Positions 1,848-46,550 of a stretch of 57,214 nucleotides of DNA are shown in pieces (the first letter of the stretch is position 1; each line of letters opens with the position of its first letter). The notes beneath the pieces are model-generated. The model was given only the letters and a program-made list of their open reading frames with translations. It did no database searches and was not told the DNA's origin. The stretch lies in assembly GCA_000999465.1 (NCBI GenBank), contig LCGB01000001.1, positions 1 to 57,214 of the forward strand. Reading direction: 5' to 3'. The stretch is from Candidatus Nomurabacteria bacterium GW2011_GWB1_43_19. Lineage in GTDB: Bacteria > Patescibacteriota > Minisyncoccia > Phycocordibacterales > UBA9973. The position numbers and the translations under genes are program-made.

Positions 1848-1963
1848 AATCTTTGCAAATATAGCTTTTGAAGGGGGTTTTGAGCTCGACGGAGCGAAAA
1901 CTTCAGGATTTTTTAAGCTTCAAAAAATCCGTACCCGAAAAAAGCTGATATTTGCAAAGATTT
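1848..1963. repeat. Intergenic structured element: long outer stem enclosing the 80-nt two-hairpin module (copy A)
   Basis: AAATCTTTGCAAATAT-AGCTTTT (1848-1870) pairs with AAAAGCTGATATTTGCAAAGATTT (1940-1963). The enclosed module 1865-1944 recurs at 30990-31069 (67/80 identical). Confidence 0.7.
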
Positions 1964-6238: not shown

Positions 6239-7828
6239 TCACTGCGTGACCTTCGGGCGGTATTGAATGGCTTCCAGGATATGATTGGACTCCACTTCGG
6301 AAGAACTTTCCAGGTCGGCGATGGTGCGGGCAATTTTAATGACCCGGTGGTAGGCGCGGGCGGAAAGACCCAAGCGTTCGGCGCTGTCGTCCAGCAGGTC
6401 CCGCACTTTCAGGGAAAGTTTGACCATGGAGGACAGGTCTTTCACATTCATTTCGCTGTTGGTCTTTTTTCTACCAGAGGCGGATCCACCTTGGGCGGAA
6501 AATCTGTTTTTTTGAATTTCCCGCGCTTGCATTACCCTCGCTTTTATTTTTTCGCTCCGCTCGCCGTTTCCTTCTCCGCCCAATTTTTTATAGTCCACAT
6601 TTCCAACCGATACCCATAAATCAATGCGGTCCATTATTGGTCCGGATAATTTTCTTCTATAGCGGTCTAGGTCGGAGGGCTTACAGACACATTCTTTCTT
6701 TTTACTGCCCAAATTTCCACAAGGACAAGGATTCATGGCCGCGACTAGGATGAAATTGGAGGGAAAAATAGCCGTGCCTTTGGCGCGAGAAATTGAAACA
6801 ATATTGTCTTCAAGCGGCTGGCGGAGCGATTCTATTACCCTCTTTTCAAATTCCGGAAATTCGTCCAGAAACAAAACTCCGCGGTGCGCCAGCGTCACTT
6901 CTCCCGGCTTCGGAAAAGTTCCCCCGCCGATAATCGCCACATAAGACGAAGTATGATGAGGGGCGCGGAAGGGCGGAAAGCAAACGAGTTCTCCTTCCAG
7001 GTTTCCGGCCACCGAATGAATGCCGGTTATTTCAAGAACTTCTTCCATACCCAAATCCGGCAAGAGTTGCGAAAATGCCCGCGCCAGCATCGTCTTACCG
7101 GTGCCCGGCGGACCATACATGGCAATATTGTGCCCGCCGGCCGCCGCAATTTCCAGTCCGCGCTTGGCGCCTTCCTGTCCGCGAACATCGGAGAAATCCC
7201 CGTCTTTTGTTCCCTTTTTGTAACTGATTGCTGTTTTCGGCTGTTGAGGTATTTTCGTTCCCGACGCTCTAACTTTGTTGGAGGTCGGGACCCCGACCCT
7301 TTTGGGCGTCGGGGCAAGATGCTCCGCCACTTCTTTCAAACTGCTGGCTCCGAAAACTTTTATGCCTTCAACCAGCGCTGCCTCTGCCGCATTTTCTTTC
7401 GGCAAATATATTTCTTCAAAACCGAGCCGTCTGGCCTCTTGAGCGAGCGGCAGGGCGCCGCGAATTCGGCGGAGTGTGCCGTCCAACCCTAGCTCGCCTA
7501 GGAAAATCTTTTTCTCCGAATTGAATTTGATGTCTCCCGAGGCGAGCATATACGAGAGCGCGATGCCGAGGTCAAAAAACGGCCCCTCTTTTTTTAAATC
7601 GGCCGGCGAGAGTGATACTATTATTTTCTGGTTCTGCGCTTTGGGAGATTTGTAACCGGAATTTTTTATTGCCCCGCTGACGCGGTCTTTGGATTCATCC
7701 ACCGCTTTATCCGGCAAGCCGACAACATTAAAAGCGTGAAGTGTTCCTTTGGAAATATCCACCTCAATCGTTACGATGGCGCCCTTAAGCAAATTAACTT
7801 GCGCCGAATAAACTTTTGCAAAGCTCAT
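6239..7828 (-). CDS. comM: Mg-chelatase-like AAA+ ATPase ComM/YifB
   Basis: 529 aa with an N-terminal Lon-protease-like domain, Walker A GPPGTGKT, Walker B LFLDEF and a C-terminal Mg-chelatase subunit ChlI-like domain. Confidence 0.9.
   Translation of the reverse strand: MSFAKVYSAQVNLLKGAIVTIEVDISKGTLHAFNVVGLPDKAVDESKDRVSGAIKNSGYKSPKAQNQKIIVSLSPADLKKEGPFFDLGIALSYMLASGDIKFNSEKKIFLGELGLDGTLRRIRGALPLAQEARRLGFEEIYLPKENAAEAALVEGIKVFGASSLKEVAEHLAPTPKRVGVPTSNKVRASGTKIPQQPKTAISYKKGTKDGDFSDVRGQEGAKRGLEIAAAGGHNIAMYGPPGTGKTMLARAFSQLLPDLGMEEVLEITGIHSVAGNLEGELVCFPPFRAPHHTSSYVAIIGGGTFPKPGEVTLAHRGVLFLDEFPEFEKRVIESLRQPLEDNIVSISRAKGTAIFPSNFILVAAMNPCPCGNLGSKKKECVCKPSDLDRYRRKLSGPIMDRIDLWVSVGNVDYKKLGGEGNGERSEKIKARVMQAREIQKNRFSAQGGSASGRKKTNSEMNVKDLSSMVKLSLKVRDLLDDSAERLGLSARAYHRVIKIARTIADLESSSEVESNHILEAIQYRPKVTQ
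6472..6498. repeat. GGATCC-centred double-hairpin element, degenerate copy inside comM
   Basis: TACCAGAGGCGGATCCACCTTGGGCGG, which in gene sense encodes SAQGGSASGRKK. It belongs to the same family as 11183, 21800 and 31497. Confidence 0.75.
7260..7313. repeat. Intragenic alternating CCCGAC/GTCGGG hairpin cluster in the comM linker
   Basis: Units are CCCGACGC (7260), GTCGGG (7284), CCCGAC (7292) and GCGTCGGG (7306), which can form nested or tandem hairpins. The cluster encodes part of the variable linker PTPKRVGVPTSNKVRASG. Confidence 0.5.
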
Positions 7829-9871: not shown

Positions 9872-9889
9872 GATAAATTAGACAACATA

Positions 9890-10159
9890 TTGGAGGATAA
9901 AAAACCTGAGCCAATTTTAGTTTCCCGCTTTCTTGATATACGAAAAAAGCCCGAAATAAATCCTACGATGGAGGATTTTCCAAACATTTTGAAGGACGAA
10001 CGGTATCGCAAACATTCTCTAGAAGAAGCAAAAAGGCTTTCCGCAGATAAATTTCATGTTTTGAGGCGATATTTTAGATCATTTTCACATATTGCATTAG
10101 AATTTGAAAAAATTAAGCCTTTCATAGAGAGAGTTTGCGGTTTAACAGAACAGTCCTAA
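9890..10159 (+). CDS. Hypothetical protein (cassette ORF 2; start uncertain, TTG at 9890 or a later ATG)
   Basis: 89-aa ORF with no recognisable motif. It may start at the internal MEDFPN. Confidence 0.3.
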   Translation: MEDKKPEPILVSRFLDIRKKPEINPTMEDFPNILKDERYRKHSLEEAKRLSADKFHVLRRYFRSFSHIALEFEKIKPFIERVCGLTEQS

Positions 10160-11172: not shown

Positions 11173-13368
11173 TTAATTATTTCCGCCCGAGGCGGATCCG
11201 CCTTTGGCGGAGAAGAAATTTTTATCCGCTTCTTTGATGGACAGGCCGATTCTGCCTCTTTCCAGGTCAATATTTATAATCTTCACCGGCACAATCATGC
11301 CTTCTTTTATTATACTGCCAACATTCTCCACGCGCCATGGCGCTATTTCGGAAATATGCACCATGCCATCGATGAAATCGTTTAACCGCACAAAGGCTCC
11401 GAAGTCGGCGACTTTCACGACTTCACCCTTGAGCATTTCACCTACCTGAAATTCGCGGGTCATTTCTTCCACGATTGCCTTGGCTTTCGCGGCCGAATCG
11501 TCCCGGCCAGTCAGATAAACAGTGCCGTCGTCCTCAATGGTTATTTCCGCTCCCGTCCTTTCCTTTATATCTTTGATAGTTTTTCCTCCCCCGCCGATGA
11601 CCAGTCCGATTTTATCCGGATTGATTTTGATTATCAAAATTTTCGGAGCATTGGGGGAAATATTCGCCCGCGGTTTCGGAATTTCTTTTTCAATCCTATC
11701 TAAAATGGCCAGCCGCGCGGATTTCCCCTGTTTCATCGCCTCGCCCAGTATTTTTATCGGCACGCCCTCCACCTTCACATCAAGCTGGATGGCGGTAACG
11801 CCGTTCCGGGTGCCGGCAATTTTGAAATCCATATCACCATAATGATCTTCCGGTCCCTGAATGTCGGTCAAAATTTTATATCTGTCATCGGACTCGTACA
11901 TTAGACCCATGGCAATGCCGGCCACCGGCGCCTTAATAGGCACACCGCCGTCCATCAGAGCCAGAGTAGAAGCGCAGATTGATGCTTGAGAAGTGGAACC
12001 GTTGGAAGCCATTGACTCGGAAACAATCCGGATGGTGTACGGAAATTCCATCGCCGTTGGCAGCACCATCTCCAGTGCTTTTTCGGCGAGGGCTCCGTGT
12101 CCGACTTCCCGGCGGTTAGTAAATCCGGCCCGGCCCACTTCTCCGGACGAGTAAGGGGGGAAGTTGTAATGATGCATGAATCTTTTTTCTTCTTTGAGCT
12201 GCAACCCGTCAACCAAATTCCTGTCTTCCGGTCCGCCCAAGGTCAAAACCGAGAGGACATGCGTCCCTCCGCGGTAGAAAATTCCCGAACCGTGGAGAAT
12301 GCTGGAGAGTTCCCCGGCTTGCGCGTAGAGGTCGCGAAGTTCATCCATCTTCCGGCCGTCGGCGCGCTTGTTTTGCTCTATCGCGCTCTTATGCAGAATA
12401 TCGTTTTCCGTATCGTCAAACAAATCGTCTTCCAGGGCAAAGTCCTCTCGGTCCGGGAATTTTTCGCTGTAGTATTCTCTTGCCAAATTGTTCCAAGTAG
12501 TATGTAAGGCATCTATTTTTTCTTTGCCCGCCTCTGCGTGGCCGAAGCCCGCTTCGGCGAGGCGAAGGCCCGCTTCTCCGAAAAGCGCTTCTTCTATGTG
12601 AGGCAGGATGTTTTCGTTAAATAAAATGACAGATTCGGGAGAAATCGTTTCTTTTTCTATTGCTCTTTTCTCTTTCCCTATTTCAGCCATTATTTTCTTC
12701 TGAAAATCCTCCAGTTTGGCTATTTCCCGGCTGGCTTCTTCCAGCGCCGCTTCCAGTTCCGCCTCGGCGATTTGGTGAGCGGACGCCTCAATCATATTTA
12801 TCTTGCCGTCTTTGCCGCAGACCGTCAGGTCAAATTTATAGGGCGCATCGTCTTCCAGGCGCAAGGACTGTGGAGGGTTGATTTGGAGTCCATTGCCGTC
12901 ATACTTGCCGATACGCACGCAGCCGATGGGGCCATTCCAAGGAATATTAGAAACGGAAAGCGCCAAGGATGCGGCGTTTACCGCTAAAATTGTCGGGTCG
13001 TTATCGTCAACGGAAAGAACCGTCACAATTACCTGTACCGCGTGACGAACCGACTGATCAAAAAGCGGGCGCAGGGTACGGTCTATCACCCGGCTGGCCA
13101 AGATGGCCTCCTCCGACGGCTTGCCTTCTCGGCGGACAAAACGGGAGCCGAGAATTTTTCCGGCCGCGTAAAACTTTTCCGTATAATCAACCGTCAGATT
13201 GAAGTATCCTAAACCCTGCTGTTTATCCTTGGACATGCAGGCGGTGGCCAAGACAATCGTCTCTCCGCATTTCAGGATTACCGAACCATGCGCCTGTTCC
13301 GCTAAGTCGCTAAAAACGGCCGTTAAAGTTTTGCCTCCGATTTCCACGCTATACTCTTTTTTCTTCAT
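11173..13368 (-). CDS. pnp: Polyribonucleotide nucleotidyltransferase (PNPase)
   Basis: Two RNase PH domains, KH (GGGGKTIKDI) and S1 (GEVVKVADFGAFVRL). I prefer ATG at 13368 (MKKKEYSVEIGG) to the TTG at 13389. Confidence 0.9.
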   Translation of the reverse strand: MKKKEYSVEIGGKTLTAVFSDLAEQAHGSVILKCGETIVLATACMSKDKQQGLGYFNLTVDYTEKFYAAGKILGSRFVRREGKPSEEAILASRVIDRTLRPLFDQSVRHAVQVIVTVLSVDDNDPTILAVNAASLALSVSNIPWNGPIGCVRIGKYDGNGLQINPPQSLRLEDDAPYKFDLTVCGKDGKINMIEASAHQIAEAELEAALEEASREIAKLEDFQKKIMAEIGKEKRAIEKETISPESVILFNENILPHIEEALFGEAGLRLAEAGFGHAEAGKEKIDALHTTWNNLAREYYSEKFPDREDFALEDDLFDDTENDILHKSAIEQNKRADGRKMDELRDLYAQAGELSSILHGSGIFYRGGTHVLSVLTLGGPEDRNLVDGLQLKEEKRFMHHYNFPPYSSGEVGRAGFTNRREVGHGALAEKALEMVLPTAMEFPYTIRIVSESMASNGSTSQASICASTLALMDGGVPIKAPVAGIAMGLMYESDDRYKILTDIQGPEDHYGDMDFKIAGTRNGVTAIQLDVKVEGVPIKILGEAMKQGKSARLAILDRIEKEIPKPRANISPNAPKILIIKINPDKIGLVIGGGGKTIKDIKERTGAEITIEDDGTVYLTGRDDSAAKAKAIVEEMTREFQVGEMLKGEVVKVADFGAFVRLNDFIDGMVHISEIAPWRVENVGSIIKEGMIVPVKIINIDLERGRIGLSIKEADKNFFSAKGGSASGGNN
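11183..11210. repeat. GGATCC-centred double-hairpin element, copy at the pnp C-terminus
   Basis: CCGCCCGAGGCGGATCCGCCTTTGGCGG, the exact reverse complement of 31497-31524. It encodes the terminal SAKGGSASGGNN* of PNPase. Confidence 0.85.
12541..12576. repeat. Intragenic tandem hairpins in pnp (GAAGC-CC-GCTTC units)
   Basis: GCCGAAGCCCGCTTCGGC followed by GAAGGCCCGCTTC. They encode LRLAEAGFGHAEAG in the variable inter-domain helix region. Confidence 0.45.
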
Positions 13369-20117: not shown

Positions 20118-20612
20118 TTACGGATACAAAACTTCATAGAAGCCGGCCGCAGGAGTAGGCACGGAGCCCCATGTATACGGCGTAATCTGGTAAGCGGCCG
20201 TTTCAAAATATACTCCAAGCTTCGGCGTACCGTCGGGATACCCTGTATAGAAATAAATATCTCCTTGAGGACCCACAAGGCTACAAGTTGAGGAGAGATA
20301 AGGAATAAGACCCCCGTCTCCTCCTGTCCCGCAAGGCGGGTATCCGGTTGTACCGGCATAATTATTGTCACTAATCCAATAGACCGTATCGTAACTTCTG
20401 GCAGGATAATAGCCGTGGTCATTATAATACAATTCTAAAGCATTTTTTATAGACCGGATATCGCCAAGGCGTCGCGCGTCGCGCGCTTTGGCTCGCGCGG
20501 AATTAAGAGAAGCCAAAACCACACTAGCCAACACTCCAATGATTGCCACAACAACCAAGAGTTCTATGAGAGTAAATCCTTTCTTAAAATTTATCTTAAA
20601 AACTGAATACAT
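20118..20612 (-). CDS. Type IV pilin-like protein (second paralogue)
   Basis: 164 aa with KKGFTLIELLVVVAIIGVLASVVLASLNSARAKAR. The N-terminal coding DNA is 82/84 identical to pilin 1. Confidence 0.8.
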   Translation of the reverse strand: MYSVFKINFKKGFTLIELLVVVAIIGVLASVVLASLNSARAKARDARRLGDIRSIKNALELYYNDHGYYPARSYDTVYWISDNNYAGTTGYPPCGTGGDGGLIPYLSSTCSLVGPQGDIYFYTGYPDGTPKLGVYFETAAYQITPYTWGSVPTPAAGFYEVLYP

Positions 20613-20619: not shown

Positions 20620-22230
20620 TCATGTACTATTTTTTCTTACTCCGTGTTTAGTATGCAACTTCTCAATCTCTTGCTCTTCTAAACTTTCTTTTTTCTCTTT
20701 TCCGCGCTCGCCCAGGGTCCGGAGCTCCGCATCGCCCAGCACATTGAGCGATTTCGTCAGTTCCGAGAGATGCTCTACTGTATTTTTCTCCGGAGCGTCC
20801 AGGATTTCTTCCAAAAGCGCGTGCAAAATCCATCCCATCCTCGGTCCCGGCTTAATCTCTAGTTCTTTTATCATAAATTCTCCGTCAATTTTCAGTTGGC
20901 CGACGGAAATCGGGTCCCGCAAGGCCTCTTCAATCATCGCGAAATACTTGCGCAGGCGGTAGGGCACTTCTTTTTTCTTCATTCCCACCCGATCACATTC
21001 ACGGACATTCATTAAGAGCCAGATATTCTCCACACTGACTTTAGTGATGATCCTCCGCACGGCCGAGAGCGTAATTAACTCCGTGTCGGAGAAGAACATA
21101 TGGTTACGGACAAGCTTTTCCACCAGTTCGGTCTCCTTTTTCGAGAACCGGAGCCGTTCCATTATTTTTTTCGCCATCCGCGCGCCGATAACCTCGTGGC
21201 CGTAGAATGTGTATTTCTTTTTTGAATTTATTTTCGGAGCCGGATGTGCAAAATCGAGTCCGTGTCGGAGCCCGCTTGCGGGTAAAGCGGCGAGATTTTG
21301 CATATCCGACGAAGAATTAGCATTTCTTCTACTTCTCGGCTTCCCGATATCGTGAAAAAGCGCCGATAACCTTATTTCTAAAGGCCATTTCTTGTCCGCC
21401 GCATGCTGGACGGCATGGAGTAAATGCTCCCAAACGTCATAGATATGCTCCCCCAGTTGTTCGCAACCCACCCCTTCCAGAAGCTCCGGAATGGTATTTT
21501 TCAGCAAGCCGAGCTTCTGCAACATAACAATTCCGCTGGCTGGATTGTCCGACATGATTATTTTTACAAACTCGTCCCGAATCCGCTCAAAGGATATTTT
21601 TTGGAGCAAGTCGGCATTTTTTAAAATACTTTCGGTTGTTTCATACGACACAGAAAAGTTAAGTTGGCAAGCCAAACGGACAGCCCGCAGCATGCGGAGC
21701 GCATCCTCGGTAAACCGGTCATCCGGATTGCCTACTGCTTTTAACGTTTTATCTTGGATGTCCTTTATGCCCCCGAAAAGGTCAACTATCTGTCCTTTTC
21801 CGCCTGAGGTGGATCCGCCTTTGGCGGAAGAGTTCAATGCGAGGGCATTAATAGTGAAATCACGTCTTTTAAGGTCGTCTTCCAGCTTGTCGCTGAACTT
21901 TACCTCATCCGGATGTCTAAAATCGCTATATTTTGCCTCAATTCTATAGGGGGTAACCTCAACGACTCTTAATGTTTCTTGTGAAACATCTTCCTGAATA
22001 ACAGCGACTGTTCCAAAGGCATTCTCATATACTGTCTTTTTAAACAGGGAGATAATTTCCTCCGGTTTGGCATTGGTTGCGACATCCCAGTCCTTAGGTT
22101 CTGTTCCCATTACAAGGTCGCGGACGCATCCGCCGACCAGATATGCCTCAAAACCCGCTTTTTCAAGTGTGTCTGTTACATGTGAAACTTCTTTGGGTAT
22201 TTTTTTTATTAAACTGTTGATGTTTTCCAT
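20620..22230 (-). CDS. cca: CCA-adding enzyme / poly(A) polymerase family with HD domain
   Basis: 536 aa with the nucleotidyltransferase motif LVGGCVRD...DWD, RRDFTINA and HD-domain LFHDIGKP. It carries two palindromic insertions. Confidence 0.85.
   Translation of the reverse strand: MENINSLIKKIPKEVSHVTDTLEKAGFEAYLVGGCVRDLVMGTEPKDWDVATNAKPEEIISLFKKTVYENAFGTVAVIQEDVSQETLRVVEVTPYRIEAKYSDFRHPDEVKFSDKLEDDLKRRDFTINALALNSSAKGGSTSGGKGQIVDLFGGIKDIQDKTLKAVGNPDDRFTEDALRMLRAVRLACQLNFSVSYETTESILKNADLLQKISFERIRDEFVKIIMSDNPASGIVMLQKLGLLKNTIPELLEGVGCEQLGEHIYDVWEHLLHAVQHAADKKWPLEIRLSALFHDIGKPRSRRNANSSSDMQNLAALPASGLRHGLDFAHPAPKINSKKKYTFYGHEVIGARMAKKIMERLRFSKKETELVEKLVRNHMFFSDTELITLSAVRRIITKVSVENIWLLMNVRECDRVGMKKKEVPYRLRKYFAMIEEALRDPISVGQLKIDGEFMIKELEIKPGPRMGWILHALLEEILDAPEKNTVEHLSELTKSLNVLGDAELRTLGERGKEKKESLEEQEIEKLHTKHGVRKNST
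21241..21308. repeat. 68-nt imperfect palindrome inside the cca HD domain
   Basis: CGGATGTGCAAAATC...(inner CCGCTT-GCGGGTA-AAGCGG)...GATTTTGCATATCCG. It encodes an extra segment between HDIGKP and FYGHE. Confidence 0.65.
21800..21827. repeat. GGATCC-centred double-hairpin element, copy inside cca
   Basis: CCGCCTGAGGTGGATCCGCCTTTGGCGG, which in gene sense encodes SSAKGGSTSGGKG. Confidence 0.85.
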
Positions 22231-22240
22231 TGAACTTTTG

Positions 22241-22312
22241 TGCGCCCGGCAAGACTCGAACTCGCAACGACGGTTCCGAAGACCGTTGTGATATCCATTT
22301 CACCACGGGCGC
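22241..22312 (-). tRNA. tRNA-Arg (anticodon TCG)
   Basis: Manual cloverleaf: acceptor GCGCCCG/CGGGCGC, D stem GTGA/TCAC, anticodon arm ACGGT-CTTCGGA-ACCGT, T arm GCGAG-TTCGAGT-CTTGC. No CCA is encoded. Confidence 0.85.
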
Positions 22313-22460
22313 AAAAATTACTTAATAATGTATATACTTTACACTATTTAAATATAAATGGCAAATAACCTTTATTTTACAAACTGATTCTACAATTGCA
22401 TTAATTGTTTAAAAATAATATAATAGATAAGCTTTTTTAAAAAAGAAGAATAAAAAAATT

Positions 22461-22534
22461 GCGGTCATGGTTTAGTGGCAGAACAACTGGTTGCCAATCA
22501 GTTGGCGGGAGTTCGATTCTCCCTGGCCGCACCA
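22461..22534 (+). tRNA. tRNA-Gly (anticodon GCC), CCA encoded
   Basis: Acceptor GCGGTCA/TGGCCGC, anticodon loop TTGCCAA, T arm GGGAG-TTCGATT-CTCCC, 3' ACCA. Confidence 0.85.
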
Positions 22535-22747
22535 ACATATGTCCTTTATAACACCACCTCGTTGCTTATTAAATATAAGGATTTTATTTAAAAATGTGGA
22601 TAACTATGTTAGTAATGTTTATAAAGGACATTTTTTAAGATAGTGTTTTGCGAGCTATTTTGTCTAAAATACGTTGTGAAATAAGGATATTTTTATAAAA
22701 GACATCAAATTGACTAAAAAGGTTTCACGTGAAACACTGCATGGTTA

Positions 22748-22836
22748 AAAGTTATCAAGTTCATAAAGTTCTTAAAGTAAAATATTCGTTAACCCAACTT
22801 TATAACTTTCTACTTTATAAACTTTAAAAACTACTT
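22748..22836. repeat. AT-rich imperfect palindrome of AAGTTnnTAAAG units (site 2)
   Basis: AAAGTTATCAAGTTCATAAAGTTCTTAAAGTAAAA faces CAACTTTATAACTTTCTACTTTATAAACTTTAAAAAC, immediately upstream of yraN. Confidence 0.55.
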
Positions 22837-22839
22837 AAA

Positions 22840-23250
22840 ATGCCAAAAGTATTTACATCGGAAACACAAAAGACCGGGGAAATTGGAGAAAATATCGCTG
22901 TAAGGTTTCTCGTGAAACGGGGTTTTTTAATTTTAGACAGGAATTACACTAAAAAATGGGGGGAAATAGACATAATTGCCGAAAAGGCCGATAAAATATA
23001 CTTTGTTGAGGTTAAAAGTGTTTCTTCCTTTAACATATCTCAGAACGTTCCACATGAAACATCCCTTGGTAGACCAGAAGATAATATGCACCCCTGGAAA
23101 CTGAAACGACTGTCGCGCGCCATTCAAACCTACCTTTTGTCTAAGAAAATAGCGGAAGAAAAAGAATGGCAAGTTGATCTTTTGGTTGTCTTTTTGGATT
23201 TAAAAAGCAAGAAAGCCAGGGTAAAAGTGGTAAGAGATATTGTTTTATAG
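22840..23250 (+). CDS. yraN: YraN-family (UPF0102) endonuclease-like protein
   Basis: 136 aa with GEIGENIAVRFLVKRGFLILDRNY..GEIDIIAEK...YFVEVKS, the typical YraN PD-(D/E)XK core. Confidence 0.8.
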   Translation: MPKVFTSETQKTGEIGENIAVRFLVKRGFLILDRNYTKKWGEIDIIAEKADKIYFVEVKSVSSFNISQNVPHETSLGRPEDNMHPWKLKRLSRAIQTYLLSKKIAEEKEWQVDLLVVFLDLKSKKARVKVVRDIVL

Positions 23251-23252
23251 TG

Positions 23253-23323
23253 TGCGGGATAGGGGAATCGAACCCCTGTCCACAGTTTGGAAAACTGTTA
23301 TTTTACCATTAAACTAATCCCGC
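23253..23323 (-). tRNA. tRNA-Gly (anticodon TCC)
   Basis: Acceptor GCGGGAT/ATCCCGC, anticodon arm ACAGT-TTTCCAA-ACTGT, T arm AGGGG-TTCGATT-CCCCT. Confidence 0.85.
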
Positions 23324-23368
23324 CTTCGCTAAAGCTTCGGCGGGCAGGCCCGCTTGGGCTTCAACTTG

Positions 23369-23439
23369 TCGGGCCGCTGGGAATTGAACCCAGTCTAAAT
23401 GCTCCCAAAGCACTTGTACTACCGGTATACTACGGCCCG
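23369..23439 (-). tRNA. tRNA-Pro (anticodon TGG)
   Basis: Acceptor CGGGCCG/CGGCCCG, anticodon loop TTTGGGA, T arm CTGGG-TTCAATT-CCCAG. Confidence 0.85.
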
Positions 23440-28883: not shown

Positions 28884-30971
28884 GTGGTGACCGACAACGC
28901 ACATCACTTAAGCGGCTTAAATAACGAACAAAAGGAAGCGGCGCTTCATATGAAGGGTCCGCTTCTTATTGTGGCCGGCGCGGGCGCGGGAAAAACCAAA
29001 ACAATAACGCACCGAATTGTAAATCTAATCAAAAACGGGGTGGCGCCGGAGAAAATTTTGGCCGTAACTTTTACCAACAAGGCGGCCAAGGAAATGCGGG
29101 AGAGAATTGTCTCGGAAATAGAAAAGAACGCAAAAGGACAGGACAGAATTCCATTTATCAGCACTTTTCATTCTTTGGGGGTCCATATTATCAAGGAAAA
29201 TGCCCGGCTGCTCGGGCTGACCAAATATTTCACCATTTTGGACGAAGGGGATTCAACTTCAATGATAAAAGAAATAGAAAAAGAGCTCGGTCTGGACCTG
29301 AAACAATACGACCCGAAAAGGATAAAAAACATAATCGCGCGCGAGAAGGGAAAATTCACGCATCTGGCGGACTATGCGGAAAGAGAGAAGGGGACGCTGG
29401 GCAGAATCGTCAGCCAAATCTGGGGTCCGTATGAAAAAAGAAAAACAAAGGAGAACGCGCTTGATTTTGACGACTTGCTCCTGAAAACGACCAAACTGCT
29501 CCAAGACAATACGGAAATCAGAAAAATTTATCAGGAAAAATGGGAATACATTCACGTAGACGAATACCAGGACACCAACGAAGTGCAATATCTGATGTCC
29601 AAACTGCTTTCCGAGAACAACAAAAACATCTGCGTGGTCGGAGACGCCGATCAGAATATTTATTCCTGGCGCGGGGCAAATTTGAAAAATATTTTAAGTT
29701 TTGAAAAAGATTACCCGGACGCGAAAATAATTTTATTGGAGCAAAATTACCGGTCAACGAAAAATATTCTGGAAGCCGCGAATGTTGTTATTAAAAAAAA
29801 TATCTACCGACCGGACAAGAATCTGTTCACCAATAACCCGACCGGAGGAAAAATCGGATTGTATGAAGCCCTAGATGAAACCGACGAAGCGGATTTCGTC
29901 GCGGCAAAAATTTTAGAAACAGCCGAAGCCGTCCATGAAGGACAAAATGTTTTCGAGCGAAGCATTGCGCAGGCTGGCGAGCCGAGCATAGCAATTCGCC
30001 AGCAGGCGAATATGCGCGCTGAGTCCGAGAATATTTTGTCCGAAATAGCAGTTCTTTACCGCGCCAACTTCCAGTCGCGCGCGCTTGAGGAGGCGATGCT
30101 CCGGCACAACATTCCATACCAGGTTTTGGGAGTAAAATTTTTTGAAAGAAAAGAAATTAAAGACACTTTGGCCTATCTGCGCGCGGCGCTGAACCCGGAG
30201 AGTTTGTCCGACATAAAGAGAATAATCAATTTCCCGGCCCGGGGCATCGGCAAAGTGACCTTGGCGAAAATTTTCGCCAATGATACGGAAAATCTGCCAA
30301 TAAAAACAAAAATCAAAATTAATAATTTTTACGGAGTATTGGAAGAAATAAAAGAAAAAGTAAAAACAGAAAAAGCGAGCCGAGTAATAAAATTTGTGGT
30401 GAAACATTCCGGCATTGAACGGGAGCTTTCAGAAGGCACGGAAGAAGATACGGAAAGATTGGAGAATGTAAAAGAACTGGCAACTCTGGCGCTCAAATAT
30501 GACGACTTGGCAAATGGACTTGGTGTTGAAAGGCTTTTGGAGGACGCATCACTTGCTTCCGACCAAGATTCTTTGATAATAAATTCGGCCAGTTCCGTTA
30601 GAGGCCGCGAGGACCCGCAGCGTGCTCTTGCCTCTAACGGGGTGAAGTTAATGACAGTGCACGCTTCCAAGGGGCTTGAATTCAAATATGTTTTTGTTGC
30701 CGGCCTGGAAGACAGACTTTTCCCCCACGAGCGAAGAAATGAAGACAGCCCTGCCTCCGCCGGTGGCTACGGCGAGGCGCAGGAAGAGGAACGCCGGCTT
30801 TTCTATGTGGCGCTCACGCGCGCAAAAGAAAAGTTGTTTTTGTCTTTTGCCAACTTCCGCACCATTTTCGGAGCGCGCAACATAAATGCTCCCTCGGAAT
30901 TTATTAACGACATCCCTGCAGGCCTGTTAGAAAAAGAAGGCGAGCATGGAGTAAAAACAATTTATATATGA
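28884..30971 (+). CDS. pcrA: UvrD/PcrA-family ATP-dependent DNA helicase
   Basis: GTG start, 695 aa, with AGAGAGKTKTI, VDEYQDTN, VGDADQNIYSWRGA, QNYRST, VHASKGLEF and YVALTRA. Confidence 0.9.
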   Translation: MVTDNAHHLSGLNNEQKEAALHMKGPLLIVAGAGAGKTKTITHRIVNLIKNGVAPEKILAVTFTNKAAKEMRERIVSEIEKNAKGQDRIPFISTFHSLGVHIIKENARLLGLTKYFTILDEGDSTSMIKEIEKELGLDLKQYDPKRIKNIIAREKGKFTHLADYAEREKGTLGRIVSQIWGPYEKRKTKENALDFDDLLLKTTKLLQDNTEIRKIYQEKWEYIHVDEYQDTNEVQYLMSKLLSENNKNICVVGDADQNIYSWRGANLKNILSFEKDYPDAKIILLEQNYRSTKNILEAANVVIKKNIYRPDKNLFTNNPTGGKIGLYEALDETDEADFVAAKILETAEAVHEGQNVFERSIAQAGEPSIAIRQQANMRAESENILSEIAVLYRANFQSRALEEAMLRHNIPYQVLGVKFFERKEIKDTLAYLRAALNPESLSDIKRIINFPARGIGKVTLAKIFANDTENLPIKTKIKINNFYGVLEEIKEKVKTEKASRVIKFVVKHSGIERELSEGTEEDTERLENVKELATLALKYDDLANGLGVERLLEDASLASDQDSLIINSASSVRGREDPQRALASNGVKLMTVHASKGLEFKYVFVAGLEDRLFPHERRNEDSPASAGGYGEAQEEERRLFYVALTRAKEKLFLSFANFRTIFGARNINAPSEFINDIPAGLLEKEGEHGVKTIYI
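29940..30041. repeat. ~100-nt imperfect palindrome inside pcrA
   Basis: Outer arms GGACAAAATGTTTTCG / CGAGAATATTTTGTCC and inner arms GCTGGCGA / TCGCCAGC. It encodes an extra ~35 aa before the conserved IAVLYRANFQSR. Confidence 0.6.
30595..30640. repeat. 46-nt hairpin insertion inside pcrA (CCGTTAGA termini)
   Basis: CCGTTAGAGGC - 24 nt - GCCTCTAACGG (perfect 11-bp arms). It encodes SVRGREDPQRALASNG just before LMTVHASKG. Confidence 0.65.
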
Positions 30972-32059
30972 AACTCGTCGAAGATACAACTTTTGGAGGG
31001 GGTTTGCCGAGCGACGGCGAGGCAACTTCAGGATTTTTTAATCTTCAAAAAATCCGTACCCAGAAAAAGTTTGTACCGAGAAAGAGTTTAGGGCAAAATT
31101 TTTTAAAATCGGAACCGGCTTTAAAAAAAATTATTGAGGCGGGAGAAGTAAAAAAGGACGATATAATTTTGGAAATCGGACCGGGCAGGGGCAAGCTGAC
31201 GGAAAAACTTTTGGAGCGCGCCGGGCTCGTCATCGCCGTGGAAAAAGACCGCGAACTTTTTGAGTTTTTGAAAACAAAGTTTGAGAAAGAAATAGAAACA
31301 AATGCTTTTGTGTTAATTCATGGGGACGTATTGAATTTTGATGTTCGCGAAACAATTCTCAAATTTTTCTCAGGTCCTCGGATTTCCGGGTCCCTATCCC
31401 GGCCAGACCATTCGAAAAATTTAGAATTGCTTCGCTATAAAATCATCGCCAACATTCCTTACAACATTACCGGAGCGATACTTAGAAAGTTTTTGTCCGC
31501 CAAAGGCGGATCCGCCTCGGGCGGAAAAAAATTTCTGACCGCCCGGAACCAGCCGGAGCGGATGGTGTTGATGGTCCAGAAAGAGGTGGCTGAAAGAATT
31601 CTTGGCAGGAGAGAAAATATTTCATACTCAAAACCTAGCCATGGCAGAAAATTGGGTAAGGAAAGTATATTATCTATTTCCGTCAAGGCCTACGGGGAGC
31701 CCAAAATGATAATGAAAGTGCCGGCGCGATATTTCTCCCCGACGCCGCAAGTAGACTCGGCGGTGATTTTGATAAAAAATATTTCTAGGAAAAATTTTGA
31801 AATCCCAGCCCAGCCCTCCCCAAAGGAGAGGGAGAGATTTGGAGCCTCCCCTTTTGGGGGAGGTATGGAGGGGGTAAATGAAGAAAGATTCTGGAAAATA
31901 GTAAAAGCGGGCTTTGCGCACAAGAGAAAAAAACTCTCCGGCAACCTGAAAAACCTTGTTTCTTTGGAAAAAACGAACTTGGCGGTTTTTAAAGACAAAA
32001 GGGCGGAGGATTTATCCCTTACGGACTGGATTTTACTGGCCCGCACACCTAATTTATAA
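30968..32059 (+). CDS. rsmA: 16S rRNA (adenine1518/1519-N6)-dimethyltransferase RsmA/KsgA, expanded by repeat insertions
   Basis: SLGQNFL, LEIGPGRGKLT, IIANIPYNITG and a C-terminal helical domain. It is 363 aa (family members I recall are ~260-290 aa). ATGA overlaps the pcrA stop. Confidence 0.85.
   Translation: MKLVEDTTFGGGLPSDGEATSGFFNLQKIRTQKKFVPRKSLGQNFLKSEPALKKIIEAGEVKKDDIILEIGPGRGKLTEKLLERAGLVIAVEKDRELFEFLKTKFEKEIETNAFVLIHGDVLNFDVRETILKFFSGPRISGSLSRPDHSKNLELLRYKIIANIPYNITGAILRKFLSAKGGSASGGKKFLTARNQPERMVLMVQKEVAERILGRRENISYSKPSHGRKLGKESILSISVKAYGEPKMIMKVPARYFSPTPQVDSAVILIKNISRKNFEIPAQPSPKERERFGASPFGGGMEGVNEERFWKIVKAGFAHKRKKLSGNLKNLVSLEKTNLAVFKDKRAEDLSLTDWILLARTPNL
30990..31069. repeat. 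80-nt two-hairpin module, copy B (inside the rsmA 5' coding region)
   Basis: 67/80 identical to 1865-1944. The hairpin GGATTTTTT-7nt-AAAAAATCC is conserved, and the first hairpin differs by paired substitutions. Confidence 0.75.
31497..31524. repeat. GGATCC-centred double-hairpin element, copy inside rsmA
   Basis: CCGCCAAAGGCGGATCCGCCTCGGGCGG encodes SAKGGSASGGKK. It is 28/28 identical to the pnp copy in gene sense. Confidence 0.85.
31814..31863. repeat. CCCTC/GAGGG + CCTCCCC/GGGGAGG double hairpin inside rsmA
   Basis: CCCTCCCCAAAGGAGAGGG then CCTCCCC-TTTT-GGGGGAGG. It encodes PSPKERERFGASPFGGGMEG. Confidence 0.65.
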
Positions 32060-32220
32060 TTGCGCTTAAAGCGCGTTATAAAACCATCATAAAATAGGTG
32101 TGTGGGCTGGCTGGACAGAAATAAATAGGGTATAATTATCCCATAACTAAATTAGATTGGTTAAAACACAAAAGAACGCTTTGGATTGCTTTTGCGATAG
32201 TTTTTCTTGTTGCGCTTTTT

Positions 32221-36994: not shown

Positions 36995-37555
36995 ATGATA
37001 ACTGAAAAATCAAAAGCAATTATAAAAGAAGAAATGTTGGCCCTGCCAAAAGAAGTACGGGAAGCCGTTGAACTTTCTAATTGGGAAAAAATATCTGAAG
37101 AAATCGGCAAGAAATACCTGCTGGATGAAGATGAAATAGAGACCTTGCAGTTGGAAACGGCTTCTTTCCTGCTCGGCTTGGTAGACGAGGACGCATACCC
37201 GAGAGATATTGAAGACGAGGTGGGCACCAGCCGGGAAGAGGCCGAAAAAATATCCGGGGAAATCTTTGAAAAGATATTTGAGCCGATAGACAGCGCGATA
37301 ACTGAAAATATAAAAAGGAGCGGAAAAGATAAAAGCCCGAAGCCGGACCAAACGATTGATTTCATTCTCTCCGGCGGAGATTATTCCAATTTTCTGGAAG
37401 AGAGGGAAACACAGACCCCCTCTGGCTCCCCCTTAGTAGGGGGAGAGGAATCCTCCCGCCCTACGAAGAGAGGGGTTGGGGAGGGTCAAAATCAAACAAA
37501 TGCGCCGGTCAAACCACGGACAATCACGGACATAAAAAGCAAATTCACCGTATAA
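36995..37555 (+). CDS. Acidic hypothetical protein (paralogue of 37595-38281)
   Basis: 186 aa sharing LQLETASFLLGLVDEDAYPRDIE...EEAEKISGEIFEKIF with the next ORF (EIETELLLCGLVSSQDYPKELE...AEANELVVEMNKEVF). Confidence 0.55.
   Translation: MITEKSKAIIKEEMLALPKEVREAVELSNWEKISEEIGKKYLLDEDEIETLQLETASFLLGLVDEDAYPRDIEDEVGTSREEAEKISGEIFEKIFEPIDSAITENIKRSGKDKSPKPDQTIDFILSGGDYSNFLEERETQTPSGSPLVGGEESSRPTKRGVGEGQNQTNAPVKPRTITDIKSKFTV
37426..37484. repeat. CTCCCCC/GGGGGAG + CCTCCC/GGGAGG double hairpin inside the 36995 ORF
   Basis: CTCCCCC-TTAGTA-GGGGGAG then CCTCCCGCCCT-ACGAAGAG-AGGGGTTGGGGAGG. It encodes GSPLVGGEESSRPTKRGVGEG. Confidence 0.65.
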
Positions 37556-43639: not shown

Positions 43640-45196
43640 ATGTCAAAAAGAAATTCTACACTTTTAATAATAATCCTGGCTCTAATAATAATCGGGTTTT
43701 TCGGATTTTTATATTTCCAAAAAAGTCCAGCGGCTCCGACGGAAGAAGGTCCGGGCACGAATTTTTTCTCGCAGTTCAACCCGTTTGGAGCAAGCAAACC
43801 GATGCCTTCGCCCGTAACGCCTCCGGTGGACATCTCCGGATATGAACCCGAGCTCGGGTCGGAGATAATAGGTGCAAAATTAATGAAAGTTTCGAGCGTT
43901 CCTGTCGCGGGATTTATAGTATTTCAAAAAGAAAGATTAATAGATGTGCCGATTATTATACCAACAACAACTCCGAGCGCGCCCTACGATTTCGGCAGCA
44001 CTACCCTTAAAAATGGAAGCGTCGGCGGGGCGGTAGAAGAAATTCAAAGGTTTTTAAACGACACGCTTAGTCTGGGCTTGGAGCCCGATGGCGTATTTGA
44101 TACGGAAATAGCTGATGTGATTAAACAATGGCAGAGTGACAACAAACTGGTTGCCGATGGTATCGTCGGCGCAAAAACAAAAGCACAAATGTATTCTTCG
44201 GTGAACCAAAAAATGGAAACGACAAAACCGACTCCGCCCTTGACTGAATTTGTGCCGGCTGTAAGGTATGTTGACAAAGCAACAGGAAATATTTACCAAA
44301 CTTTTACGGACAAAATAGAAGAGAGAAAATTTTCAACAGCGCTAATTCCTAAAGTTTACGAAGCGTTTTTCGGGAGTAAGGGCGAGTTTGTGGTTATGAG
44401 ATATTTAAACGCGGACGGCAGAACAGTTGAGACCTTTGTCGGCAATCTGCCGAAGGAACACTTGGGCGCAGATACGACTCCCGACGAAATAAAAGGTTCC
44501 TTTCTGCCGAAAGACGCAAAAGATGTAAGCGTGTCGGCGAACGCCGAGAGTATCTTCTATCTGTTTAATGTCGGAGATAATATGGTGGGTACCACCCTTA
44601 ACTTGTTAAATAATAAAAAAGTTCAAGTTTTTGATTCACCTTTCGCCGAATGGTTGTCGTGGTGGCCGAACAATAAAATGATTACCTTGACCACCAGACC
44701 CGCGTACGGCATACCGGGATATATGTATGGGGTAGACCCGACGAGCAGCAATAAACATCTGAACAAAATTTTTGGCGGTATAAACGGACTTACCACGCTC
44801 CCAAGTCCCAATGGAAAGTTGGTTCTCTACGGCGATGGCGGTTTGTCACTTAGTGTTTATCACACGGATACAAAGGTTTCGGACTTGTTGGGAACCCGAA
44901 CTCTGCCGGAAAAATGCGTCTGGGACAGAGCAAGTGACGCGGTTTATTGCGCGGTGCCTAAATTTATCGGCGCAGCTCAATATCCGGATATCTGGTATCA
45001 GGGAGAAGTGTCTTTTTCGGACCAACTTTGGAAAGTGGACATAGTGAACGGAAATGCTACCTTGCTTTTGGACCCAATCACAATTACCAACGGAGAAGAA
45101 ATTGACGGCATAAAACTTTCTCTTGATGAAAACGAAAATTATTTATTTTTTGTAAATAAAAAGGACTCCTTCTTGTGGAAACTTAATCTGAAATAA
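43640..45196 (+). CDS. Membrane-anchored protein with a peptidoglycan-binding (PG_binding_1) domain and a beta-propeller-like C-terminus
   Basis: GSVGGAVEEIQRFLNDTLSLGLEPDGVFDTEIADVIKQWQSDNKLVADGIVGAKTKAQM is a classic PG-binding repeat. The C-terminal region is TolB-like and beta-rich. Confidence 0.6.
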   Translation: MSKRNSTLLIIILALIIIGFFGFLYFQKSPAAPTEEGPGTNFFSQFNPFGASKPMPSPVTPPVDISGYEPELGSEIIGAKLMKVSSVPVAGFIVFQKERLIDVPIIIPTTTPSAPYDFGSTTLKNGSVGGAVEEIQRFLNDTLSLGLEPDGVFDTEIADVIKQWQSDNKLVADGIVGAKTKAQMYSSVNQKMETTKPTPPLTEFVPAVRYVDKATGNIYQTFTDKIEERKFSTALIPKVYEAFFGSKGEFVVMRYLNADGRTVETFVGNLPKEHLGADTTPDEIKGSFLPKDAKDVSVSANAESIFYLFNVGDNMVGTTLNLLNNKKVQVFDSPFAEWLSWWPNNKMITLTTRPAYGIPGYMYGVDPTSSNKHLNKIFGGINGLTTLPSPNGKLVLYGDGGLSLSVYHTDTKVSDLLGTRTLPEKCVWDRASDAVYCAVPKFIGAAQYPDIWYQGEVSFSDQLWKVDIVNGNATLLLDPITITNGEEIDGIKLSLDENENYLFFVNKKDSFLWKLNLK

Positions 45197-45209
45197 TAAC
45201 CACCCCTAA

Positions 45210-45279
45210 CCCCTCCTCCACAAGGAGGGGAGGAATTACTGAACCCTCTCCCCCTGCTAAGGGGGAGCGCCCGAAGGGC
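45210..45279. repeat. Triple GC-rich hairpin cluster (intergenic copy of the CCCCTCC/CTCCCCC family)
   Basis: CCCCTCC-TCCACAA-GGAGGGG, CTCCCCC-TGCTAA-GGGGGAG and GCCC-GAA-GGGC, between the convergent T4SS-like operon and jag. Confidence 0.6.
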
Positions 45280-45286
45280 AAGGGGG

Positions 45287-45793
45287 TCAGATTGTTCCCA
45301 CGTATTTAATCACCACCCGGCGAGCATATCCCGTGCCTACTGACTCGGTCTTTAGGTCAATTGCGTCGGATAAAAATTCGTGGATAATCCTGCGTTCAAA
45401 AGCCGACATCGGGTCAACTTCTATGTTGGATTTGAAATATCTCGCCCTTTCCGACATCATGTGAGCCACTGCGCGGATGTTTTCTATGTGTTTCTTTTGA
45501 AAGCCGTTTATGTCAATGAGAAGGCCTAAACCTTGTTGCTGCCGCATGTCGGACCTGGGGGATTCCCCCAAGTCCGACATGCGGGGGGTTTTTGTCTCAA
45601 TAATTCTGCGAACAATGTGGTTTAAGGCTTGCAGGCCTTCGCCGTCCCGTCCCACAAAAAAATGAGGTTCGTTAACTTCCACAGAAACCCATATGTTTTG
45701 AGTTCCGTCTTCGGTAACGGAAATATCATTTAATTTTACCGTGGTTTTTTCAACCAAATCTTTTATTAAATTTTTTATTTCTTCTTTTTCCAT
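45287..45793 (-). CDS. jag: Jag/SpoIIIJ-associated RNA-binding protein (KH + R3H)
   Basis: ATG at 45793 (MEKEEIKNLIKDL), 1 nt after the yidC stop. The C-terminal ERRIIHEFL...GTGYARRVVI is an R3H motif. Confidence 0.8.
   Translation of the reverse strand: MEKEEIKNLIKDLVEKTTVKLNDISVTEDGTQNIWVSVEVNEPHFFVGRDGEGLQALNHIVRRIIETKTPRMSDLGESPRSDMRQQQGLGLLIDINGFQKKHIENIRAVAHMMSERARYFKSNIEVDPMSAFERRIIHEFLSDAIDLKTESVGTGYARRVVIKYVGTI
45542..45584. repeat. GTCGGAC-TGGGGG palindromic element inside jag
   Basis: CCGCATGTCGGACCTGGGGGA-T-TCCCCCAAGTCCGACATGCGG (20/21 arm pairing). It encodes PRMSDLGESPRSDMRQ and shares its core with the xerC element. Confidence 0.8.
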
Positions 45794-45794
45794 G

Positions 45795-46550
45795 TTATTT
45801 TTCCCCGACGCTATAATTTTTAGTAAAGGTCGGGGTCCCGACTTCACGTCGGGACTTAACATAAATCTGTTGTCCCACCATAAAAATGTTACTGGTAATC
45901 CAATAAAGCGCCACGGCACCGGAAATACTGTAAGCGATAAAAGCAACGATAAACGGGAATATATATTTCATTTGCGTATGCATACTTTTGGCAAAAGAGT
46001 CCGAAAAGGAGCCGGTGGAGCCGCTTGGGGTAGGGGCGGGCTTTGGCATAAAGTGGGCCTGTAAATACTGGGACACCCCCGCCAGAATTGCCAAAACCAT
46101 ACTCTTCTGGCTTATATCTATAACCCCCAGGAAAATCATATTTATACTTTCGGGAATATGAATAAAAGAATAGAGAAGCCCGTTTTCAAAACTAAGCCCT
46201 TTGAAGAAAACAAAATACAGAGCAAAAATAATGGGAATTTGGATTAACACCAAGAGGCACCCGGAAAACGGGTTGGTTTTGTGTGTTTTATAAAGTTCAA
46301 AAGTCAGCTTGGCCTGTTCTTCTTTGCTTTTACCGCTTGTCTTTATTTTATTAAGTTCGGGAGCCAGCAGATTCATCTGGGCCTGGCTTTCAATAGATTT
46401 TTGGGAAAGAGGAAAAAGTATGATTTTAACGAGAATGGTGAGAACAATAACCGCGACCCCAACGTCTCCGCCAGGGATAATTGACACCAAAAAGGCCAAG
46501 GCGTTCAATAATGGCTTATATAAAATGGTATCCCAGATGCTTGAAAGCAT
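45795..46550 (-). CDS. yidC: Membrane protein insertase YidC (short Gram-positive type)
   Basis: 251 aa, 5 TM, with conserved ...NPFSGCLLVLIQIPIIFALY... and position upstream of jag. Confidence 0.9.
   Translation of the reverse strand: MLSSIWDTILYKPLLNALAFLVSIIPGGDVGVAVIVLTILVKIILFPLSQKSIESQAQMNLLAPELNKIKTSGKSKEEQAKLTFELYKTHKTNPFSGCLLVLIQIPIIFALYFVFFKGLSFENGLLYSFIHIPESINMIFLGVIDISQKSMVLAILAGVSQYLQAHFMPKPAPTPSGSTGSFSDSFAKSMHTQMKYIFPFIVAFIAYSISGAVALYWITSNIFMVGQQIYVKSRREVGTPTFTKNYSVGEK

Follow-up and report, generated by a model that had tools for sequence, protein, structure and literature searches.

Small hairpin elements as in-frame, probably translated loop inserts in the rsmA gene of a Nomurabacteria genome

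Rickettsia palindromic elements (RPEs) are small, hairpin-forming palindromic families of about 150 bp, dispersed in a small genome, and many of their copies sit in frame in unrelated housekeeping genes, where the extra peptides have been judged compatible with the protein fold (PMC10969869). Repetitive extragenic palindromic (REP) elements are very short imperfect palindromes of 20-40 bp, two of which, when inverted, can fold into one hairpin, the REPIN, that behaves as miniature mobile DNA (PMC3116915; PMC3733652), and two large REP superfamilies carry GTAG/CGTC terminal tags (PMC3733652). In fungal and sponge mitochondria, small GC-rich double-hairpin elements repeatedly invade compact AT-rich genomes, with families shared between distant lineages (PMC2800124). 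In addition, quasi-palindrome or template-switch mutation makes perfect inverted repeats and "compensatory" stem changes in a single step (PMC8794818; PMC5453318). Here we examine the rsmA (ksgA) gene of Candidatus Nomurabacteria bacterium GW2011_GWB1_43_19 within a stretch of 57,214 nt of contig LCGB01000001.1 (the window). Four of the five extra segments in this gene belong to dispersed families of hairpin elements (one or two hairpins each, with conserved cores of 30-90 nt), and both this genome and its relatives carry further members of these families, some inside other genes and some in intergenic DNA. We found no description of such elements for Patescibacteria or the candidate phyla radiation, a weak negative given the limited literature coverage, and a literature search for the string GGCGGATCCGCC, which lies at the centre of the commonest element, returned only cloning primers.

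Taken as an analogy, the closest counterpart of the rsmA inserts is the RPE, since both are dispersed palindromic repeats found in frame in protein-coding genes. RPEs are, to our knowledge, restricted to Rickettsia. The two are set apart by size and host: the cores described here measure 30-90 nt against about 150 bp for an RPE, and the host is a bacterium of the Parcubacteria/Nomurabacteria type. There are further differences, in that one family (the GGATCC element) is near-identical across many phyla, that the single gene rsmA holds four families at once, that at least two families have conserved cores set in site-specific complementary arms, and that one core is found in both orientations at one site. 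The GGATCC element likewise resembles REPs and REPINs in consisting of two short palindromic units with a one- or two-hairpin fold. However, REPs and REPINs are extragenic and lineage-specific by definition, whereas GGATCC copies are mostly genic (all four in the window, and 65 of 108 elsewhere among the matches listed, counted as stop-free frames of at least 200 codons), share one phase, occur across phyla and lack the GTAG/CGTC tags in their core. The mitochondrial elements are structural analogues with one or two hairpins, but they are organellar and mostly intergenic, whereas the present elements reside in frame in essential genes of a bacterial genome, and nothing points to common descent. 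Template switching, finally, would explain both the perfectly complementary, site-specific arms and the inversion of a loop, but it is a mutational process with no element family, and it leaves the recurrence of 30-90-nt cores at many loci unexplained.

The gene itself is, on the evidence of its sequence and a structure model, probably an ordinary KsgA-type 16S rRNA dimethyltransferase gene with a functional product. The open reading frame (ORF) encodes 363 aa and its ATG overlaps the stop codon of the upstream pcrA/uvrD gene (ATGA). The product matches Pfam RrnaAD (PF00398, E = 1e-46), and the motifs GQNFL, EIGPGRG and NIPYN are all unbroken and in frame, as the first-pass annotation had stated. 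EIGPGRG and NIPYN, which represent the S-adenosylmethionine-binding E-x-G-x-G-x-G and the catalytic N-[LI]-P-Y, show little or no variation across the 120 best-scoring RsmA proteins, ranked by similarity to this insert-rich query. An AlphaFold2 model built on these relatives reaches a mean pLDDT (predicted local distance difference test) of 81.6, with the core above 90, and displays the two-domain KsgA fold, a Rossmann-like N-domain and a helical C-domain; Foldseek matched it to KsgA/Dim1/Erm structures only, the best matches all being KsgA/Dim1, with template modelling (TM) scores, normalised to the target, of 0.72-0.85. The relatives carry names from Candidatus Nomurabacteria, Paceibacteria or Parcubacteria, and related contigs keep the gene order cca ... 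uvrD/pcrA, rsmA, type-IV-secretion-like cluster.

What distinguishes this RsmA is its length, the greatest among the 120 relatives (363 aa in a range of 261-363, median 289). Solved KsgA structures in the PDB align with it only when five stretches of the query are looped out, and these gaps are exactly the extra segments; in the model, the residues in coil or of low confidence (1-42, 135-156, 177-195, 213-233 and 278-304) are again the inserts, every one of which falls between secondary-structure elements. All five inserts are in frame, multiples of three in length and free of stop codons, they correspond to peptides of 10-34 aa rich in Gly, Ser, Pro and Ala, and they are GC-rich compared with the gene. 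The first-pass annotation had named three repeat families within rsmA; the three segments exist, but the count becomes four hairpin families plus one insert without a hairpin (at about 31604-31657) that it had missed. Overall, we consider it probable that these segments are in-frame loop inserts, mostly small hairpin elements, which are translated and tolerated and which spread in the manner of RPEs.

At site S1, the possible smaller hairpin CCGGG-TCCCTAT-CCCGG that had been flagged near 31395-31411 is real, although it lies at 31386-31402, about 9 nt away, where it forms the apex of a hairpin of about 90 nt. Around it, a conserved 44-nt core (31370-31413) is flanked by site-specific arms and represents the fourth dispersed family. 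This core has no second copy within the window but is dispersed in related genomes, where BLAST and a search based on its termini recovered 15 copies from the loci fetched; these lie in rsmA, uvrD and cca as well as at other places, three of them within one 21-kb locus. Complementary arms of about 15-25 bp flank all 15 cores, and the arm sequence is wholly different from site to site. Between relatives the core is 77-100% identical, as against 28-54% for fourfold-degenerate sites; whatever peptide it encodes, it is thus the nucleic acid, DNA or RNA, on which constraint or renewal acts. Moreover, the core is found in both orientations at the same rsmA site: it is inverted in loci L121 and L122, and the core of L121 matches the reverse complement of that of L123 at all 44 positions. 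The reverse strand is read in two frames, giving NGLAG... peptides, and the one relative that reads the inverted core in the different frame still has a segment of 33 aa and an intact downstream frame.

These observations bear directly on whether the segments might be ordinary lineage-specific loops of RsmA under protein selection, their likeness to sequences elsewhere being a coincidence of low complexity. Composition rich in Gly, Ser, Pro and Ala does resemble that of many natural linkers, site S3 (no hairpin, no other copy) fits such an account well, and the S1 peptide SGPRFSGSLSRPDHSKN is common among RsmA relatives. Yet identical nucleotides, synonymous positions included, recur in unrelated genes and between genes, and the same DNA placed as its reverse complement at the same site yields unrelated peptides (SGPRFSGSL... 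against NGLAGIGTRRTEDL). The chance expectation is zero for both of the repeats found within the window, and near-identical strains differ by clean presence or absence. For four of the five segments this account is contradicted, and as a whole we regard it as very improbable. Nor are the segments conserved sequence shared by orthologues, as the first-pass annotation had allowed: the alignment of the 120 relatives has seven variably occupied sites, each of the five segments is present in some relatives and absent in others, and different element families occupy the same few loops in different relatives. At S1, for instance, some relatives have only a basal loop of 10-12 aa, about 44 have FFSGPRFSGSLSRPDHSKN, about 17 have NGLAGIGTRRTEDL or NGLAGVGDPENRGPE, and about 10 have ERTLGRSGDDGQRKFSAENFRGESEN.

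The GGATCC element lies at site S2, where the insert consists of a 30-nt double hairpin (core 31496-31525) and a 12-nt target repeat, its placement being ambiguous within that repeat. The element is built of two palindromic units of 15 nt and can take the form of either two hairpins or a single long one (fold z = -5.4 with its A/T arms), and its consensus is TCCGCC-NNN-GGCGGATCCGCC-NNN-GGCGGA. A repeat had been proposed at 31497-31524 and proves to be one, with four copies of the pattern in the window against none expected; all four are genic and share a single phase and orientation relative to the coding strand, reading SA[KQ]GGS[AT]SG[GR]. One of the host genes we take, from its sequence, to be pnp, encoding polynucleotide phosphorylase. 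A scan with one genome per species found at least 120 loci, where about four matches would be expected by chance according to our own arithmetic from the fixed bases in the pattern and the collection size. Among the matches listed are many Patescibacteria lineages, together with loci in assemblies that bear the labels Omnitrophota, Kiritimatiellae, Lentisphaerae, Verrucomicrobiota, Ignavibacteria, Elusimicrobia, Melainabacteria, Planctomycetales and others. Of the 65 long-frame copies, 57 use the phase Ser-Ala-x-Gly-Gly-Ser-Ala-x-Gly-Gly (SAxGGSAxGG; P = 1.3e-19), and all three phases of GGATCC copies are almost always open. Such a bias makes sense only if the element is translated.

The presence of the S2 element is itself variable. 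RKFL-SAKGGSASGG is found in four of the 120 relatives, one further relative has STKGGSAPGG at S4 instead, and locus L212 (protein P0002) shows a clean 42-nt gap against 31483-31524 of the window with flanks 94-95% identical. A miniature inverted-repeat transposable element (MITE) would combine terminal inverted repeats with a direct duplication of its target site. Here the target AAAAAATTTCTG is a palindrome, and its 12-nt repeat therefore agrees almost as well with a direct duplication (9/12 positions) as with an inverted one (10/12); the terminal arms of S1-core and element-1 copies are inverted, not direct. A crude measure of arm complementarity did not separate real from shuffled GGATCC pairs (mean 9.5 against 8.3 pairs), and our claim of long, site-specific arms is accordingly limited to the S1 core and the element-1 variants. 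The IMG/VR collection of viral contigs gave six matches to the GGATCC pattern, about three of them true copies, and none to the S1 core pattern, so that phages are no evident reservoir. In three loci from assemblies labelled Kiritimatiellae/Verrucomicrobia (L003, L006 and L041), the GGATCC element lies inside a longer shared repeat (...GGATTGTCCGCC...GGCGGAAAATTCCTATGCATTGAA); the open frames around many of these copies are short, so that the element may live differently there, perhaps between genes. GGATCC is also a classic restriction-modification site. The window holds two N6/N4 DNA methyltransferase genes (3516-4337 and 14027-14854, minus strand), one of which adjoins a weak match to a PD-(D/E)XK nuclease (2990-3514).

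Element 1 lies at the N-terminus of RsmA. An 80-nt two-hairpin module at 30990-31069 had been proposed as a repeat, and its standing as such is secure: a second copy, 82% identical over 85 nt, sits between the rny stop codon (1846) and an HU-like gene (2105), where no plus-strand ORF of at least 30 aa spans it, and a 36-mer from the element occurs twice in the window against zero expected. Both copies take one common three-way-junction fold (z = -2.3 and -3.3) made of a closing stem, a GGG/CCC stem and two hairpins. The consensus from six aligned copies has 24 pairs, nine with compensatory changes and none broken, and one of these changes, G-C to G-U, pairs on the sense strand only. In rsmA the element is read in frame as residues 6-36 or so, forming an N-terminal extension that is present in four or five of the 120 relatives, most of which begin without it (MK-AKKSLGQNFL). 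At locus L208 the consensus start MKAKKSLGQ follows the element; in the window and in L205, L206 and L207, by contrast, the element separates the ATG from KSLGQNFL, no other start is available, and it must be read through there. Two relatives, P0062 and P0094, have a different N-terminal expansion at the same gene boundary, a tandem duplication of the first 15 or so codons (KKSLGLKTINGFSRAKKALGLKTINGFARAKKALGQ...).

More diverged copies of element 1 are detected by its covariance model, some intergenic and some inside ORFs of 461 and 698 codons, and by inspection these have site-specific closing stems. A further type, which we call ERT, forms an in-frame insert, FERSIAQAGEPSIAIRQQANMRAESENIL, within the pcrA/uvrD gene (28884-30971) directly upstream of rsmA, and occurs also at rsmA site S1 of L212 and in uvrD of L123. 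ERT copies are not recognised by the element-1 covariance model R1, which gives the pcrA copy just 5.4 bits, but they align collinearly with diverged matches of that model (L142, L134 and L128). Element 1 and ERT are probably one superfamily, the link being a weak one that passes through these intermediate sequences.

Conservation of this kind raises the question of whether the cores act in cis as nucleic-acid signals that the host, or a system acting on them, maintains, and that genes tolerate as harmless peptides; they could serve in mRNA stability or processing, in translation pausing at domain boundaries, as DNA uptake or recombination signals, or as protein-binding sites. This explanation overlaps with the one we prefer and differs only in why the cores are conserved. 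It would accommodate the identity of the S1 core between genomes with saturated synonymous sites, the near-invariance of the GGATCC element over many phyla, the three-way junction that element 1 keeps through compensatory changes, including the pair formed on the sense strand only, and the location of element 1 at gene boundaries on three occasions (the rny-hup spacer and the uvrD-rsmA junctions of the window and of L208). However, the same conservation is expected from a mobilising enzyme acting in trans or from continual renewal out of a common pool. Copies at unrelated positions, in unrelated genes and in both orientations are ill-suited to position-specific regulation, individual copies are dispensable in close strains, and no Rfam family is matched. 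We therefore consider host signalling an unlikely account of the elements, though one to be kept in mind.

Sites S4 and S3 are less clear-cut. The CCCTC/CCTCCCC double hairpin that had been described at 31814-31863 corresponds to a real segment of 63 nt (element 3) with related copies in other genomes; as a repeat within the window it did not hold at the sequence level, and its folding energy is unexceptional (z = -0.94). Its structure is that of two C-run/G-run hairpins enclosed by an outer C-run/G-run pairing. Relatives of element 3, 75-82% identical, lie at the same site in L210 and L211, another copy in L010 (Portnoybacteria) is 73% identical over 73 nt, and half-copies lie in cca and rsmA of L123 and at rsmA site S0 of L210, so that element 3 is a loose family. 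A peptide search with a 54-aa element-3 concatenate gave eight candidates, none at E up to 10, so that, in the frame used, element 3 does not encode a widespread peptide. Among the 120 relatives, S4 is occupied by many insert types. The S3 segment GRRENISYSKPSHGRKLG adds about 14 aa beyond the basal loop; it has no hairpin (fold z = 0.37), no DNA match to it was found elsewhere, and it is common only to the query, P0002 and P0003. At this site 79 of the relatives have a 5-aa loop, and at least five other insert types are seen.

Comparison of close strains shows that inserts are gained, lost or swapped between them. Members of the RsmA cluster that are 94-95% identical (340-342 aa) lack the S4 segment only. 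L212, in addition to its S2 gap, is without element 1 and without S4, has an ERT-type element where the window has the S1 core, and shares S3. The DNA of L209 is 99-100% identical to the window except for a divergent tract of about 200 nt that carries a clean 63-nt insert (31802-31864), a difference that looks like allelic recombination. The rsmA alleles of L209 and L212 are mosaics relative to 30900-32062 of the window, blocks of 94-100% identity alternating with blocks of 49-82%, and the C-terminal ends of rsmA have been swapped between lineages; such mosaics indicate frequent homologous recombination within the population. Could the inserts instead be assembly chimeras, or repeats collapsed in metagenome assembly? 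Short repeats can mislead assemblers, and the organism is uncultured. But the identical 363-aa RsmA is on record for 39 contigs, with NCBI, JGI and ENA among the sources, so that an assembly artefact can be dismissed. The inserts also recur at these sites in relatives that come from unrelated studies, and the elements are far shorter than reads and always in frame. We give assembly error practically no weight.

The first-pass annotation left two readings open, that the protein tolerates several surface insertions or that the segments are removed or skipped. Removal before the protein matures could in principle proceed by RNA splicing, by programmed translational bypassing or by protein splicing. 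Bypassing of hairpins is known from phage T4 gene 60, and the strong hairpins within the coding sequence, together with the high GC content of the inserts relative to the gene, would be in keeping with it. Removal or bypass, however, would not constrain length or frame, yet all five inserts are stop-free multiples of three, the GGATCC copies show an extreme phase bias, and one relative reads the inverted S1 core in the other frame with its downstream frame intact. There is no stop codon after a possible take-off codon, segments of 10-34 aa are far too short for inteins, and an Rfam search returned only four tRNAs in the window, with no intron at the gathering score; even at E up to 1, no intron family matched the gene, and neither rsmA nor 1780-2110 gave anything credible. 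Removal is thus disfavoured, and we hold it to be a very unlikely explanation. Tolerance of surface insertions, on the other hand, is supported by the multiple-of-three lengths, the absence of stops, the loop or coil location, the variable occupancy and the phase bias. Because of the phase bias, the open frames, the lengths and the relative with the inverted core in another frame, the inserts are likely translated, and peptides predicted from them include FLSAKGGSASGGKK, FLSAKGGSASGGK and FFSGPRISGSLSRPDHSK.

If the inserts are in-frame hairpin elements of this kind, they would remain in the mRNA and be translated into flexible surface loops that the fold tolerates, and selection would remove insertions that break the frame, add a stop or hit the core. 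A few permissive loops would then be refilled by different families because all other insertions are removed. The "hotspot" that the first-pass annotation saw in rsmA is borne out in so far as the gene fills five of the seven variable sites, the highest count of all 120, but pcrA, cca, pnp and a comM-like gene in the window also carry copies, and insertion is therefore a genome-wide habit. From these neighbouring copies we infer that reuse of the same RsmA loops reflects selection for permissive sites and not targeting of rsmA. The elements themselves may be selfish or semi-selfish DNA, analogous to RPEs, spread by machinery that recognises hairpins or acts during replication, with a single-strand (HUH-type) transposase and template switching as candidates. 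More speculatively, a hairpin-recognising single-strand transposase would account for the conserved cores, and template switching or recombination between arms would explain both the site-specific complementary arms and the flipping of the 44-nt core (PMC8794818).

At the same time, several points weigh against this account. Translation of the inserts is something we infer from sequence alone. Among about 20 window ORFs scanned, no transposase or other mobilising enzyme was seen, only a tyrosine recombinase, and likewise no RAYT-type gene. A purely selfish model does not predict a host function, yet such a function could instead be why the core nucleotides are conserved in distant genomes and, for GGATCC, in different phyla. 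The copies of element 3 form no more than a loose family, and the S3 segment does not qualify as a repeat. The S4 difference from L209, carried as it is by a divergent tract, shows allelic recombination and not transposition. When gains and losses were placed on a tree, almost every occurrence was scored as a separate change, on a tree of 247 columns that is poorly resolved. Finally, ranking by an insert-rich query biases the relatives towards insert carriers and the frequencies upwards.

A bolder proposal, which we put forward tentatively and think possible but doubtful, is that these very small elements, 30-90 nt long with a closing stem and one or two hairpins, make up a class of their own that has not yet been described and that resides largely in essential genes of Parcubacteria-type and other uncultured bacteria. 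Its GGATCC member would be retained near base for base across phyla and nearly always read as SAxGGSAxGG, and a conserved, hairpin-recognising or replication-linked mode of spread would build the inverted arms and flip the core. Such a class would be a general origin of protein loop insertions in these lineages that has so far escaped notice. The extra loops of these uncultured bacteria, often taken as lineage-specific or as lowering homology scores, may often be mobile hairpin DNA, with consequences for annotation, for phylogenetic alignments (the inserts being homoplastic) and for structure prediction. With the rsmA locus, the behaviour seen in Rickettsia has a second and independent example, once more in a reduced genome, which allows the role of genome reduction or of repair-pathway loss in favouring such elements to be tested. 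The GGATCC element raises the question of why 30 nt should stay unchanged in bacteria so far apart. Since near-identical strains have filled and empty alleles, metagenome time series that are already available would allow turnover to be measured directly.

Table 1. Positions of rsmA, its inserts and related elements in the window
Feature	Position	Strand	Reading or basis
rsmA/ksgA coding sequence	30968..32059	+	ORF list; Pfam RrnaAD; PDB KsgA matches; AlphaFold2 model
Element 1, three-way-junction repeat of about 90 nt	30984..31073	+	Second window copy; covariance model 109.6 bits
Element 1, second copy	1859..1948	+	Intergenic; covariance model 106.8 bits
Diverged element-1 superfamily member (probable), ERT type, in pcrA	29941..30046	+	In frame (...FERSIAQAGEPSIAIRQQANMRAESENIL...); collinear alignment and peptide motif scan
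Site-S1 insert, hairpin of about 90 nt	31347..31435	+	Reads ...ETILKFFSGPRISGSLSRPDHSKNLELLR...; fold z = -4.6
Site-S2 insert, 42 nt	31483..31524	+	Reads (RKFL)SAKGGSASGG; pattern search, frame, fold
GGATCC copy, comM/yifB-like Mg-chelatase gene	6470..6499	-	Reads SAQGGSASGR
GGATCC copy, extreme 3' end of presumed pnp	11182..11211	-	Reads SAKGGSASGGNN-stop
GGATCC copy, CCA-adding enzyme/poly(A) polymerase-family gene (cca)	21799..21828	-	Reads SAKGGSTSGG
Site-S3 segment	31604..31657	+	GRRENISYSKPSHGRKLG; about 14 aa beyond basal loop
Site-S4 insert (element 3), 63 nt	31802..31864	+	Reads IPAQPSPKERERFGASPFGGG
Locus with element-3 architecture (two C-run/G-run hairpins)	37408..37492	+	In frame within ORF 36995-37555 (QTPSGSPLVGGEESSRPTKRGVGEG)
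Locus with element-3 architecture	45199..45290		Between convergent genes 43640-45196 (+) and 45287-45946 (-)

Other parts of the window hold structures of a similar kind. Within the minus-strand ORF 45287-45946, a near-perfect 52-nt palindrome at 45538-45589 (CCGCATGTCGGACCTGGGGGATTCCCCCAAGTCCGACATGCGG, -42.9 kcal/mol) lies in the coding frame (TPRMSDLGESPRSDMRQ) and is possibly another family of in-frame hairpin insert. More GC-rich, strongly folding stretches are present in the GGATCC-bearing genes at 7279-7334 (the comM-like gene), 12521-12582 (pnp, FGEAGLRLAEAGFGHAEAGK) and 21253-21296 (cca), and these are candidate inserts; a scan for GC islands as an insert census was unspecific, giving 115 islands in the window that are mostly ordinary coding sequence. 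In L210, the uvrD relative adjoining rsmA (6633-9920, 1095 aa) has a weak precomputed Pfam match to an intein splicing domain, and these genomes may thus host larger in-frame mobile elements too.

Among the remaining repeats, a 101-nt inverted repeat (5316-5416/20485-20585, 91% complementary, 15 kb apart) was rejected as an element, as it represents the N-termini of two paralogous pilin-like genes with an N-terminal methylation motif (5214-5822, plus strand, and 20118-20612, minus strand). Two direct repeat pairs, each 87% identical, are found at 2953-2997/4354-4398 (45 nt) and 9446-9499/10171-10224 (54 nt), and the former, just upstream of two minus-strand genes around a methyltransferase gene, may be shared promoter or leader sequences. 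A tRNA cluster at 22240-23439 contains four genes on both strands (Arg-TCG, Gly-GCC, Gly-TCC and Pro-TGG).

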